Source: Caedibacter taeniospiralis
Lineage (GTDB): Bacteria; Pseudomonadota; Gammaproteobacteria; Francisellales; Francisellaceae
Length of the DNA: 32,000 bases
NCBI RefSeq assembly: GCF_002803295.2
Contig: NZ_PGGB02000008.1
Location: 1 to 32,000 of the forward strand
Direction of reading: 5' to 3'
Shown: positions 1 through 13,735 of the stretch, piece by piece
Layout of the letters: each line of letters starts with the position of its first letter
Numbering within the stretch: the stretch's first letter is position 1
Translations under genes and position numbers: made by a program
The notes under the pieces: generated by a model
Seen by the model: the letters and a program-made list of their open reading frames with translations, nothing else
The model's database searches: none
What the model was told of the DNA's origin: nothing

Positions 1-1
1 A

Positions 2-133
2 GGTGTCGATGATGCAATGATTCAACCATATTCAGGACATGAAAGCAGAAAATCATTAGAAATATATTCAAAACTGTCTCTTTCTGATTGCCAGGGAGAA
101 TACGAAGAGCAGATAAAATCATTTCCTATCTGA
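2..133 (+). CDS. tyrosine recombinase/integrase, C-terminal fragment (5' part lies left of the window)
   Basis: The frame is open from the window edge to TGA at 131-133 and translates to [43 protein letters not shown]. The GH-x-S-x-x-S-x-x-x-Y pattern resembles the box II His and catalytic Tyr region at the C-terminus of tyrosine recombinases. It is absent from the ORF track because it has no start codon in the window. Confidence 0.5.
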
Positions 134-1743
134 AGTGGCGGCTCAGCGCACGAACCTTAACACATGTCCTGTTTATCAAATCTAAAAAACACTCCGATAG
201 AAATAAAGCCTATATCTTACAATCAGCTCAGGCAAACCCTGATAGTTTGGAGGCTTTATGCCAGTACAAATACGAAATCATTCAAAAGACAGAGTACAAG
301 TATACAAAAACGCATATCGTTTCACCGAATGTTATTCGTCGAGTGTACGAAAATTACAATAAACATAGCAGCCTTTCTCAATCTGACTTGGTTAATTATT
401 TTGATGGTATTTTGACGTCTGCAATTAATCAAAATGCTTCAGATATTCACATTAAAGTAATGCAGGATTCTGCAGATGTATCTTTTCGAGTGCATGGTGA
501 GATTATTCATCATTCACGCCACGATGCAGAACACATGCATAAAATGATACTTTCCGTTTATAACGGTCAAGGCGCCGAGGGACAAAAAGATCAACAATTT
601 GACTTAGGAGAAAAGCAACAAACGATTATTGAAAGACATATAAACAATAGAATGTATCGTATCCGCTTTATGTCTTCTAAAATAGTTGCTGCAAGTAATG
701 ATGATTTACACAAGCGATATTATATTGTTGCACTAAGGCTTTTATCATCAGATGCCTCTGCGATTAAAAATATTCATGACTTGGGTTACACCGAAATCCA
801 GTTGGAGTCGTTAAATCGAGTATCATTAGCGCCAAGCGGGGGAATTGTTTTTTCTGGAACCACAGGTTCAGGGAAATCCACCTCTTTGGCAGGTCTGATT
901 ATTGAAATATTATCTTACTCAAAGGGTAAGAAAAAAATTATCTCAGTAGAGTCTCCTGTTGAATATGTTATTAATGGAGTTGATCAGTTGGTTGTACATG
1001 AGTCTGCGGGGATGAGTGAAGAGGAAATTACTGAAGAATTCAACAAAGCACTAAAGGCATTAATGCGCCTAGATCCCGATATTATTTATTGCAATGAAAT
1101 AAGAAACAGCACAACAGCTCTATTTTCACAAAAAGCCATACAATCTGGGCACCTATTTTTATCCACCGTTCATGCCCAGTCAGCTTTGGGGGTAATTGAG
1201 CGGCTTGCCCGCATAGAGATGGATCTTGATCTACTGTGTAGTATTGGCTTTATTCAACTGGTTGTGCACCAAACATTAATACAAAACTCATGTCAGTATT
1301 GCAGCAAAAAAATATCTGATTTAGAAATTACTGAAAAAAACAGTTTAAAACATTTAATTGAAAGGATTGAAAAGGTTGTTGATACCTATTCATTACCCGA
1401 AAATAGCCTGCAAAAAATTCGCTTTCGCAATGATTCAGGTTGTAATCAATGCAATCAAACGGGCGTTGCTGGCAGAACGGTTGTTGCGGAGATGTTATTG
1501 CCTAATATAGAAATTTTGAAACTCATACGTGAAAAAAGGACGGTTGATGCTTACAACGCTTGGCGAAACCATGGATTTAACACAATTTTAGAACATGCAA
1601 TAAGCAAACTATTCCATGGAGAGATATGCCCGCTGGCACTAGAAAGTAAATTAGGCTTTATTGACTCAGACATCAACAAAGAAAACTTAACAAAACAAAA
1701 ATATAAAGAGATTTACAGTAAATTAGTTGGCAGTGATACATGA
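88..1743 (+). CDS. type IV pilus / T2SS assembly ATPase, PilB/GspE family (R64 PilQ-like, BfpD/TcpT-like)
   Basis: Motifs seen: ASDIHIKV near the N2 domain, Walker [10 protein letters not shown], Asp box ISVESPVEY, Walker [13 protein letters not shown], His box [10 protein letters not shown], and a tetracysteine motif CQYC...CNQC. There is no in-frame ATG upstream of the conserved domain, so the start is uncertain. The track uses TTG at 88, which overlaps the recombinase 3' end. Confidence 0.85.
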
Positions 1744-1746
1744 TGA

Positions 1747-12374: not shown

Positions 12375-12648
12375 TAAATGGGTTGAAAACACAAAGTTCG
12401 GAGTCACCCGCGATGGCAAGAACATTTCTGCTCAAGAGCTCGCGTCAAATGCTCAGTTGCTTGAGTCTGTTTTTGCGTCAGTTGAAGCAAAATTATATCA
12501 TTTGTGTGAATCAGATTTTAAAGTTCAGCACAAAAATAATGCGTGGGTTATACAGTCTGAAAAATTATCAGATCAATTTCTAATTATATCAATGGCAATA
12601 AGAGAATTAAGCCAGCTGGAAAACGCAAATGGCGTGATTGAATTATGA
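12352..12648 (+). CDS. hypothetical 98-aa soluble protein between dotL and dotM
   Basis: The ATG is preceded by GGAGG and overlaps the dotL 3' end by 23 nt, which suggests translational coupling. There is no TM segment and no motif I recognise. Confidence 0.5.
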   Translation: MNLTTIINKWVENTKFGVTRDGKNISAQELASNAQLLESVFASVEAKLYHLCESDFKVQHKNNAWVIQSEKLSDQFLIISMAIRELSQLENANGVIEL

Positions 12649-12679
12649 TAAAAACACAGTAGCCAGAGGTAGATAATTT

Positions 12680-13735
12680 ATGTCTCAATCCAATCACAAC
12701 GCCGAGGGCAGCGAAATGACCATTATCTATATTATTGTGGTCATCCTGATTGCCTTGCTGCTGACCTATTACCTTTTCAAGGCTCAAATATTAGCAGTGT
12801 TATTTCAATGGAAGTTTTATGAATTAAAAACCATTGCTGCTTTTGTGCCCAAATATAAGAAAGTGATTGACTGGGTATTAACGATAAATCATGATCAGGT
12901 TACCTTAAAAAATATTTATTATCTGTGTATCGATATTGGTGTTGCATTAAGATATCCTCTCGTTCTCCTCAGTGCCGCTATGGTGATAATACTATACCGT
13001 TACCACCCCCAGTCTTACTATCAAAAACCCCATAATATGAAAACTCTGACTGAGTTTACTGGTGAGTATAACCCGATGGCTTTATCCGTTATTAATCTGC
13101 AATTGTCACAAATGGAACTGACTTCTGGTGCCTGGTCGATGGGATTATCTCCATTTGAGTTTGTAAGAAAAAATCGATTAATTTCCGAGCATAAGAAGCT
13201 TGATAGGAATAAAACATATCAGTTATTTTTAAAGCAATTAGGTGACAAATGGTCAACGTTAGGAAGACTTAATTTTTGTCAGTCAGCAATACTGGCTGCT
13301 TGTTGTACTTATATCGTTGGTGACAGGAAGCAGGCGGAGAGCTTTGTAAAAGGTATCGCAACCGTTGTGAAGAATGGCAAGGTGACCACACAGCAAAAAA
13401 GTCAGTTAATCCATAGTATTAAAGCTTTGGTTGCGCAACATTATAAACATGAAACAATTCAGACCATCGTGTCGCAACATGCGTACATCAATACAGTCAT
13501 AGCCGCCCTGCTACAAGAAGCAAAAGCTGGCGGAATCGTTCCTCCTTCGTTGTTTTTATGGATAAAACCATTAGATAGAACACTGTGGTATATCATTAAT
13601 AATCTTGGCAGAAAGTCAGTTTTTATCGAGGCTGCTGCTGTGAGCATGCATTTTAATAATGAAAGACGAGTTGGAGAGAAAATTGAATATCCTGCGATTG
13701 AGCAGCTGGTTACCGAGCTTGAGAGCTTGATTTAA
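12680..13735 (+). CDS. dotM: T4BSS coupling-complex membrane protein DotM/IcmP (IncI TrbA-like)
   Basis: N-terminal TM segments are present. SGAWSMGLSPFEFVRKNRL, SQHAYINTVIAALLQEAKAGGIVPPSLFLWIKPLDRTLWYIINNLGRK parallel the remembered DotM sequence (GPWAMALTPMEFARKYNLL; KHAYVLTVIASLLEAAREDGVVPSSEFLWLKPVDRRLWYMLNCVGRQ). Confidence 0.85.
   Translation: MSQSNHNAEGSEMTIIYIIVVILIALLLTYYLFKAQILAVLFQWKFYELKTIAAFVPKYKKVIDWVLTINHDQVTLKNIYYLCIDIGVALRYPLVLLSAAMVIILYRYHPQSYYQKPHNMKTLTEFTGEYNPMALSVINLQLSQMELTSGAWSMGLSPFEFVRKNRLISEHKKLDRNKTYQLFLKQLGDKWSTLGRLNFCQSAILAACCTYIVGDRKQAESFVKGIATVVKNGKVTTQQKSQLIHSIKALVAQHYKHETIQTIVSQHAYINTVIAALLQEAKAGGIVPPSLFLWIKPLDRTLWYIINNLGRKSVFIEAAAVSMHFNNERRVGEKIEYPAIEQLVTELESLI

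Follow-up and report, generated by a model that had tools for sequence, protein, structure and literature searches.

The window analysed here is a stretch of 32,000 nucleotides of Caedibacter taeniospiralis (contig NZ_PGGB02000008.1, positions 1 to 32,000), whose left part carries genes of a type IVb pilus followed by genes of a Dot/Icm system for type IVB secretion (T4BSS). C. taeniospiralis is an R-body "killer" endosymbiont of Paramecium tetraurelia and belongs to the Fastidiosibacteraceae/Francisellales group, outside Legionellales; ten or more proteins of the window are identical to RefSeq entries for this species. An initial annotation, made from the letters alone, had read the gene order as running from the 3' end of a recombinase gene through the pilus and Dot genes to dotM and then into yrdA-like, lolB and ispE genes, and this order was borne out by searches with Pfam and NCBIfam profiles. 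Absent from that annotation were an in-frame TAA in dotL, the truncation of the pilus ATPase gene at its 5' end, the gene orf364 and two insertions resembling miniature inverted-repeat transposable elements (MITEs). The published C. taeniospiralis genome is that of strain 51K, an obligate endosymbiont, with 1.3 Mb in 24 contigs (PMC5773718), and the strain sequenced here is probably 51K.

The genes described below for window 1-15937 are on the plus strand. The Dot block begins with a gene for a small inner-membrane protein resembling IcmC/IcmD and the IncI protein TraQ (6912..7325; NCBIfam conj_TraQ_IncI1, 31 bits, below cutoff), whose position upstream of dotD is kept in Facilibium (67%) and in Thiotrichales isolates. 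It is followed by the genes of two outer-membrane lipoproteins, dotD (7395..7904; Pfam DotD PF16816, 66 bits; also NCBIfam T4SS_lipo_DotD) and dotC of the TraI family (7901..8668; Pfam T4SS_TraI PF16932, 207.6 bits). Both Pfam scores are above the gathering scores, which identifies the two proteins as Dot/Icm lipoproteins; DotC is 63% identical to its counterpart in Facilibium, 40% to that in Piscirickettsia and 28-33% to TraI of IncI plasmids. The ATPase gene dotB (8640..9794) gave a full-length match to TIGR02524 (dot_icm_DotB) with 341 bits, yet below the equivalog cutoff of 463; the plasmid TraJ model scored 216 bits. The icmT gene (9784..10029) matched NF038220 IcmT_TraK with 82.5 bits at a cutoff of 40, and DotB and IcmT were both accepted as components of the system. 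Then come dotL (icmO), the gene of the type IV coupling protein (10032..12374), recognized by the DotL/TrbC profile and interrupted by a stop codon in translation, the small orf98 (12352..12648), which has the position of the IcmS homologue in related loci, and dotM (icmP; 12680..13735; WP_100550888), encoding a coupling-complex protein (Pfam DotM_C, 158.7 bits; NF033890, 237 bits, cutoff 230).

The product of orf98 matched none of the profile families, and its alignment with IcmS by hhalign was weak (20% probability, E 1e-3). The Thiotrichales isolates have a protein of 110 amino acids in this position, which profiles of IcmS from Coxiellaceae-type loci mark as IcmS-like with 97.5% probability; no match was obtained between orf98 and this Thiotrichales group, and the single-sequence AlphaFold2 (AF2) model of orf98 was unusable (pLDDT 48). 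As a guess from its position, orf98 may encode a divergent IcmS-like adaptor. Judged by homology to Legionella, Coxiella and Piscirickettsia, DotC and DotD would form the outer-membrane core together with DotH, DotB would be the cytoplasmic docking ATPase, IcmT and the IcmC/D-like protein would be inner-membrane parts, and DotL, DotM and small adaptors would form the coupling complex that recruits effectors into the channel.

The pilus genes in the window are a pilQ-like gene for the extension ATPase (167..1743; Pfam T2SSE, 207 bits), from which about 67 N-terminal codons are gone, a pilR-like gene for the inner-membrane platform protein of the GspF/T2SSF family (1783..2856; Pfam T2SSF, 35 bits, above cutoff, for the 1747-2856 product; in RefSeq WP_100550878, 357 amino acids), a pilS-like gene for the type IVb major prepilin (3057..3578) and a pilV-like gene for a large minor pilin or adhesin (3595..4773). 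The 3003-3578 product of pilS matched Pfam PilS PF08805, Bundlin PF05307 and N_methyl PF07963; the longest open reading frame (ORF) starts at 3003, and the ATG at 3057 has the better ribosome-binding site. Its leader ends in QQQG/YSLLE, a class III signal of the form G/x...E5. The pilV product, with its longest ORF from 3544, was assigned from the N_methyl motif, a leader ending in RNSG/FVLLE and a position the same as that of PilV in IncI plasmids; no lytic transglycosylase or peptidase gene was found between pilS and pilV. Thus the prepilin and the platform protein of a type IVb pilus (R64/Tcp/Bfp class) are both encoded in the window, whereas the set is incomplete there: the ATPase is about 67 codons short, and the secretin and accessory genes are absent. 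Again by homology, the complete operon would build a PilS fibre with a PilV tip via a PilN secretin, and the pilus probably mediates attachment.

We also looked for a shufflon in pilV. The gene holds one segment bounded by inverted repeats, and inverting it gave eight stop codons; the lake strains described below are colinear with the window here, and the shufflon was rejected. The 16-nt inverted repeat itself (4101-4116 / 4375-4390, 94% complementary) is kept in a lake strain, in spite of a nucleotide identity of only 87% for the gene. The next gene after pilV, upstream of the icmC/D-like gene, is orf364 (5083..6177; WP_100550881), which encodes a signal-peptide protein of 364 amino acids with no match in Pfam or NCBIfam.

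At the left edge of the window, the pilQ-like gene is interrupted by foreign DNA. The first feature is the 3' end of a tyrosine recombinase gene (2..133, 43 codons; 65-80% identity to annotated recombinases in tblastn). Its matches are tyrosine recombinases in plasmids of Rickettsia, Legionella and Francisella. Three of these plasmids were inspected, one each from Legionella, Francisella and a Rickettsia endosymbiont, and in every one the gene before the homologue encodes a Tn3-family transposase. The end of the foreign DNA and its junction with pilQ occupy 134..166, as defined by blastn and by alignment with lake contig L093: nucleotide homology to the intact lake-strain pilQ starts at 164-167, and upstream there are 30 bp of unrelated sequence and the stop codon of the recombinase gene. 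The intact pilQ orthologue (P0167) is 592 amino acids long and 99% identical, and its N-terminus is missing from the window; the ATPase homologues in Cysteiniphilum and Francisellaceae have about 600 amino acids. The RefSeq call for this gene, WP_100550877, is a 551-amino-acid ORF from a TTG at 88, of which 27 codons are foreign sequence. Because the recombinase homologues follow Tn3-family transposases in three of three plasmids, the interrupting DNA is probably a Tn3-family transposon. No conserved Tn3-type terminal repeat was recognizable past the recombinase stop codon across four elements. The foreign DNA takes the place of the first ~67 codons of pilQ and cuts the gene off from its upstream context.

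The second lesion is in dotL. An in-frame TAA at 11361-11363 stands in place of the codon for the Walker-B glutamate (VLD-stop-YGYY). The lake strains have GAA there, in an otherwise identical 60-nt context, and encode an intact DotL of 780 amino acids; the DotL proteins of Facilibium (784 amino acids) and Piscirickettsia read VLDEYGYY. RefSeq annotates dotL only as a 443-amino-acid fragment, WP_325063828. The G-to-T change from GAA to TAA takes away the C-terminal 43% of the coupling ATPase, and an intact coupling protein with both Walker A and Walker B is not encoded in the window, though DotM is intact. Since DotL ends before the Walker-B glutamate, and pilQ is without its N-terminus and upstream context, both machines, T4BSS and pilus, were judged from their sequences to be probably non-functional in strain 51K. 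The initial annotation had named a decaying remnant as one of its possibilities, and for this strain it agrees with the nonsense codon in dotL and the truncation of the pilus ATPase gene.

Disrupted genes were also seen in other Caedibacter-like assemblies. The lake contig L103 has an in-frame TGA in dotO at 4304-4306 where Facilibium has the tryptophan codon TGG (GKL-stop-PYQPG and GKLWPYQPG), which reflects either an error in sequencing or a further pseudogene of a T4BSS ATPase that arose independently. A 4237-bp environmental contig in NCBI has dotL split into P0412 (118 amino acids) and P0414 (652 amino acids), at a position that differs from that of the stop in the window. These cases hint at recurrent loss, although an assembly error is possible in each of them.

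How the locus continues to the left could be seen in freshwater metagenome strains that are 95-99% identical to the window, some of them filed in NCBI as C. taeniospiralis. Contig L093 (12.9 kb) has 98.6% nucleotide identity to window 167-2868. It carries a leftward arm with DotN-like, DotH and DotG genes and a rightward operon encoding a TcpQ/PilL-like protein, a PilN-family secretin (TIGR02520 PilN family, 195 bits), a 447-amino-acid protein in the PilO position, a PilP-like protein, the 592-amino-acid ATPase, PilR, PilS and PilV; matches to pilP_fam and TcpQ are also present. L103 overlaps the left end of L093 at 98% and continues with DotF, DotO, an IcmW-like protein, DotI, IcmV and the start of DotA. 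In these relatives the IcmW, IcmV and DotN matches are weak and below cutoff. On the other side, L086-L088 are colinear with window 5172-13752 and have an intact dotL. Inverted ends of a transposon that match each other were found where L093-L099 stop on the right and where L086-L088 start on the left, with junctions at about window 5047 and 5172, and from these matching ends we infer that the pilus and Dot modules are adjacent in the lake strains too, with a transposon between them.

The intact layout was pieced together from three overlapping or abutting lake-metagenome contigs. Its leftward arm reads dotA, icmV, dotI, icmW-like, dotO, dotF, dotG, dotH, dotN-like; to the right follow the pilus operon, pilL/tcpQ, pilN, pilO, pilP, pilQ, pilR, pilS, pilV, and the Dot block, orf364, icmC/D-like, dotD, dotC, dotB, icmT, dotL, orf98, dotM. 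A complete pilus operon flanked by a complete Dot/Icm set thus appears to be present in the lineage, and the window is only the right-hand part of it. The initial annotation was correct that the window has no DotA, DotO, DotG, DotH, DotF or DotI, no relaxase, no secretin and no prepilin peptidase, and the leftward extension that it had thought possible is seen in these near-identical relatives: DotG, DotH, DotF, DotO, DotI and DotA are all on L093 and L103, which are 98-99% identical to the lineage of the window. A search with DotO from Piscirickettsia gave no match named C. taeniospiralis among the matches listed; DotO was found on L103 instead. The Dual-Seq paper mentions 12 type IV secretion system parts on several contigs in C. 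taeniospiralis, IcmE among them, and reports IcmE transcription at only 2 transcripts per million (TPM) (PMC7297999).

The transposon in the lake strains has ends (TGTTAYGCGACAAATATAATGCTCCAC...) with three ~22-bp subterminal repeats, like Tn7- or Mu-type ends. It lies between pilV and orf364 and removes the first ~30 codons of orf364, and every assembly breaks there.

These relatives bear on the suggestion that the window encodes a reduced but functional apparatus, in which the pilus, DotB, DotL and DotM would serve a new role without the rest of the T4BSS. It is true that only a subset of the components is in the window and that most of its ORFs are intact, with low ratios of non-synonymous to synonymous substitution (dN/dS). 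However, the missing components lie directly to the left in relatives that are 98-99% identical, so that the full component set adjoins in the lineage, and this contradicts the proposal. In addition, a stop codon interrupts dotL, whose product would be the central coupling ATPase of an apparatus of this type, the gene of the pilus ATPase is incomplete, the window has no secretin, and IcmE transcription is very low at TPM 2. We regard such a reduced apparatus as hardly credible.

The dN/dS ratio was determined pairwise between the window and the lake strains. The values were 0.05-0.28 for the icmC/D-like gene (0.05), dotD, dotC, dotB, dotL, orf98 and dotM, and 0.12-0.15 for pilQ and pilR (pilR, 0.12); icmT gave 0.32, on two substitutions only. 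The housekeeping genes yrdA, lolB, ispE and ftsY gave 0.10-0.19. The orf364 protein is kept in the lake strains with 98.5% amino acid identity and a dN/dS of 0.08. For pilS the value was 0.52, with 74% amino acid identity between the strains, and for pilV 0.46 (74-82% amino acid identity for the pilins overall), a divergence as expected for exposed pilins. The genes were therefore under purifying selection for most of the divergence, and because the values match those of the housekeeping genes, both lesions must be of recent date. In this strain the locus would accordingly represent an early stage in the decay of a system that still worked not long ago.

Both lesions could nevertheless have arisen in the draft assembly, the one in dotL as an error of the consensus and the other through a misjoin at the transposon, and the locus would then be fully functional in 51K. 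Each lesion is supported by one assembly only, the dN/dS values show no relaxed selection, and the sequences flanking the TAA are identical to those of the lake strains. However, a MiSeq consensus of high coverage seldom contains substitution errors (PMC5773718), the independent disruptions of T4BSS ATPase genes in the other assemblies (dotO, TGG to TGA, in L103; dotL in pieces of 118 and 652 amino acids) suggest a real tendency, and the TPM of 2 for IcmE speaks against a working system. An artefact therefore seems improbable to us.

We conclude, with a probability of roughly 0.78, that the stretch is one arm of a chromosomal Dot/Icm T4BSS with an embedded type IVb pilus operon, and that it was broken recently in the sequenced strain. 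The conclusion draws on observed gene identities and gene order, the two lesions, the intact relatives and the purifying selection. By analogy, the broken genes would have lost functions like those of other T4BSSs and type IVb pili, and their decay may reflect relaxed selection in a vertically inherited laboratory endosymbiont. Several points weigh against our conclusion. The dotL stop is known from a single Illumina draft assembly; the truncated ATPase retains the whole catalytic T2SSE domain and could keep some activity if expressed; the literature remark on IcmE is the only sign that the pilL-P and dotN-dotA arm survives in this strain; the adjacency of the pilus and Dot modules in the lake strains is deduced across a transposon that breaks every assembly; and every functional statement for this organism is based on homology. 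With these points in mind, the 51K genome should be used with caution as evidence for a working T4BSS. The laboratory strain and its wild relatives also offer a natural contrast for asking whether a T4BSS is needed for infection or for maintenance.

The window genes lie beside yrdA, lolB, ispE and tRNA-Gln, and the initial annotation had considered, among other possibilities, that they are the right end of an undescribed IncI-like integrative element. Such an element would have entered the chromosome next to these core genes and would transfer DNA by a thin pilus and an MPF_I apparatus. Several observations agree with an element of this kind: the exact colinearity with IncI-complex plasmids in order and orientation, a slightly lower G+C content (37% in the pilus block and 39% in the Dot block, as against 42% for the core genes), a tyrosine recombinase at the left edge and a tRNA-Gln gene 2.1 kb to the right, a right junction that varies between strains, and a high density of insertion sequences, transposons and MITEs. 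On the other hand, no relaxase or oriT-like gene was found among the ORFs of window 1-13735 or in ~35 kb from the relatives (L086, L093, L103). The recombinase is part of the foreign DNA that interrupts pilQ, its homologues following Tn3-family transposases in three of three contexts, and lies inside the pilus operon, at no boundary of an element. The nearest Dot relatives are chromosomal (Facilibium, 63%; Piscirickettsia, 40%), as against 24-32% for IncI plasmids; DotB fits the Dot/Icm model far better than the plasmid TraJ model; the Dot order is that of the Piscirickettsia salmonis cassette; and there are weak, below-cutoff matches to IcmW, IcmV and DotN. No long direct repeats were seen within the window; a left boundary, if it exists, would be outside. 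An integrative element is thus very unlikely. The slightly lower G+C content and the variable right junction are compatible with an old horizontal acquisition, and horizontal acquisition has been proposed for the T4BSS of Fangia (PMC8896642).

The flanking core genes are a gamma-carbonic-anhydrase/YrdA-like gene, lolB, ispE and tRNA-Gln (13754..15937), which are also on the 141.5-kb lake contig L082. In the lake strains the gene after dotM is not yrdA; an ORF of 2114 amino acids that has DEAD/SecA-like helicase domains comes first, and an ISL3 transposase after it (L086 8472-16558). The housekeeping contig L082 (with the starts of L082-L085) begins inside the last ~210-225 bp of dotM (window 13527-13752), and the two lake copies of the dotM 3' end differ at four single-nucleotide positions. 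A duplication or an insertion thus seems to separate dotM from yrdA in the lake strains, one that the sequenced strain lacks or has deleted.

Two insertions lie between the genes. A MITE-like insertion, or one like a repetitive extragenic palindrome, of 127 bp at 2869..2995, between pilR and pilS, appeared as a gap in blastn against L093; this copy is present in the sequenced strain only and absent from the lake strains at this site. The repeat family holds the hairpin GTCATTCCCGCGAAGGCGGGAATC, and related copies lie at window 29444-29554 and L093 3106-3162. A repeat search gave a second MITE-like element of ~400 bp at 6235..6636, downstream of orf364 and upstream of the icmC/D-like gene; its terminal inverted repeats are 39 nt long and include the palindrome CCCCTTCACTTGTGAAGGGG. 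The region differs in the lake strains, window 6212-6653 corresponding in blastn to 229 nt in L086. Next to it, orf75 (6679-6906) has a TTG start, an odd composition rich in cysteine and arginine and a dN/dS of 0.6. Instead of a gene, this is probably the region where the icmC/D-dot operon has its leader or promoter. Further to the right, the small minus-strand ORFs 17066-17377 and 21621-21977 share a 126-nt stretch with 74% identity; since their counterparts on L082 have HTH_8 (Fis-like) domains, the two ORFs look like a paralogous pair on either side of secA. A search with Rfam found two tRNAs only, and a promoter scan gave a count equal to the shuffled expectation, which is uninformative.

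To place the Dot half among known loci, the window proteins were compared by tblastn with 80 genomic loci containing dotC. The order (IcmC/D), DotD, DotC, DotB, IcmT, DotL, small ORF, DotM on one strand was found in Facilibium subflavum, in P. salmonis (three copies), in three isolates named "Thiotrichales bacterium" and in several metagenome-assembled genomes (MAGs) of Francisellaceae and Gammaproteobacteria. The published order of the P. salmonis Dot/Icm cassette is the same as that of the window (PMC5671498), and the annotated locus in our set (L003) agrees with it. The Dot half is the canonical arrangement of a known Dot/Icm lineage; the system is of the Piscirickettsia type and represents no new class, T4BSSs being already known from Fangia and Piscirickettsia (PMC8896642). 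In both Caedibacter and Piscirickettsia the component families are the same and the locus is chromosomal, in an intracellular gammaproteobacterium of the same deep-branching group. The two differ in that the Caedibacter cassette is split, with the dotN-like to dotA part inverted and placed beyond the inserted pilus operon, whereas P. salmonis has two to three cassette copies and no adjacent pilus operon; moreover, protein identity is only 27-62%, and dotL is broken in the sequenced Caedibacter strain. The cassette split predates Caedibacter, because Facilibium keeps its T4BSS on separate contigs. In F. subflavum the genes occupy at least two contigs, one of which (L102, QLIT01000031) has DotI, a 1133-amino-acid DotA-like protein, DotH, DotG, a DotF-like protein and DotO, and the other IcmC/D to DotM. 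The latter ends 340 bp upstream of the icmC/D-like gene and is uninformative on linkage to a pilus operon.

The arrangement in Legionella and Coxiella is different. In Legionella loci only dotD-C-B were found near dotC, and in Coxiellaceae icmT and dotM-dotL are on the opposite strand. The families DotB, DotC, DotD, IcmT, DotL and DotM are common to the window, Legionella pneumophila and Coxiella burnetii, and the lake relatives add DotA, DotF, DotG, DotH, DotI and DotO; several Legionella-specific parts were not found in the Caedibacter locus. By analogy, the role would be that presumed for the Legionella and Coxiella systems, namely translocation of effectors into a eukaryotic host. We know of no thin-pilus operon of the kind carried by plasmid systems in the chromosomal Dot/Icm loci of Legionella, Coxiella or Piscirickettsia, and in our survey none of the 80 dotC loci had a pilus operon or pilus ATPase gene within 10 kb of dotC. 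A pilus operon nested between two T4BSS arms and colinear with that of IncI plasmids appears to be undescribed in the literature searched.

The IncI comparison was made with an annotated IncK2/Z MPF_I plasmid, NZ_CP135699, in place of R64. On one strand this plasmid encodes TcpQ/PilL, PilM, PilN, PilO2, PilP, the ATPase, a T2SSF protein, the pilin, a lytic transglycosylase, a prepilin peptidase and PilV, and after two further genes DotD/TraH, TraI, TraJ and IcmT/TraK. The initial annotation was therefore right to pair the window with IncI plasmids, in which the pil operon lies beside the TraH-I-J-K homologues, since both order and strand mirror the window; its proposals of an integrative element and of a reduced apparatus did not stand, and that of an ancestral synteny is doubtful. 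Caedibacter and the IncI plasmids have in common the pil order, a PilN-family secretin, a PilS-family pilin and, next on the same strand, the homologues of traH-I-J-K. In contrast, the plasmid proteins are only 24-32% identical to those of Caedibacter, the Caedibacter operon is without PilM, PilT (the lytic transglycosylase), PilU (the prepilin peptidase), a shufflon and Rci, and no relaxase, oriT, exclusion gene or primase was seen. In Caedibacter dotL and dotM directly follow icmT, whereas in NZ_CP135699 trbA is ~26 kb from traK, presumably in the distant trbA-B-C block of IncI plasmids. Unlike IncI plasmids, the Caedibacter lineage has weak matches to the Dot/Icm adaptors IcmW, IcmV and DotN, for which, to our knowledge, R64 has no counterparts.

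Dot/Icm systems are regarded as descendants of conjugation machines of the IncI type, and the Caedibacter chromosome might preserve the ancestral IncI-like architecture from which they arose; in wild strains the pilus would attach to the ciliate and the T4BSS would then inject. If this were true, the locus would stand as a living intermediate between machines for conjugation and the Dot/Icm machines of virulence, with a parallel in the mating of R64 assisted by its thin pilus. We consider it doubtful. The closest homologues of the pilus proteins, with 44-50% ATPase identity, are in type IVb pilus operons that stand alone (in Cysteiniphilum, a Francisellaceae MAG, Francisella sp. 19X1-34 and two metagenome contigs). 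Three of four such operons keep the order (TcpQ-like), secretin, PilO, PilP, ATPase, platform protein, PilS pilin, large minor pilin; of these genes, Francisella sp. 19X1-34 has just the half from the ATPase to the minor pilin. The neighbours of these operons are housekeeping genes, and no Dot/Icm gene occurs within 10 kb of them, whereas the Caedibacter operon lies between two T4BSS arms. Shared ancestry of the arrangement is thus argued against by the low identity to IncI proteins, the missing PilM, PilT, PilU and shufflon, the unlinked pilus homologues and the result for the 80 dotC loci. Both modules look native to this bacterial family and were seen linked only in Caedibacter, and a secondary juxtaposition of the pilus and Dot genes is more economical than an ancestral linkage. 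An embedded pilus operon colinear with that of IncI plasmids is nevertheless a useful point of comparison for the evolution of T4BSSs, and it may bear on the contact between endosymbiont and ciliate.

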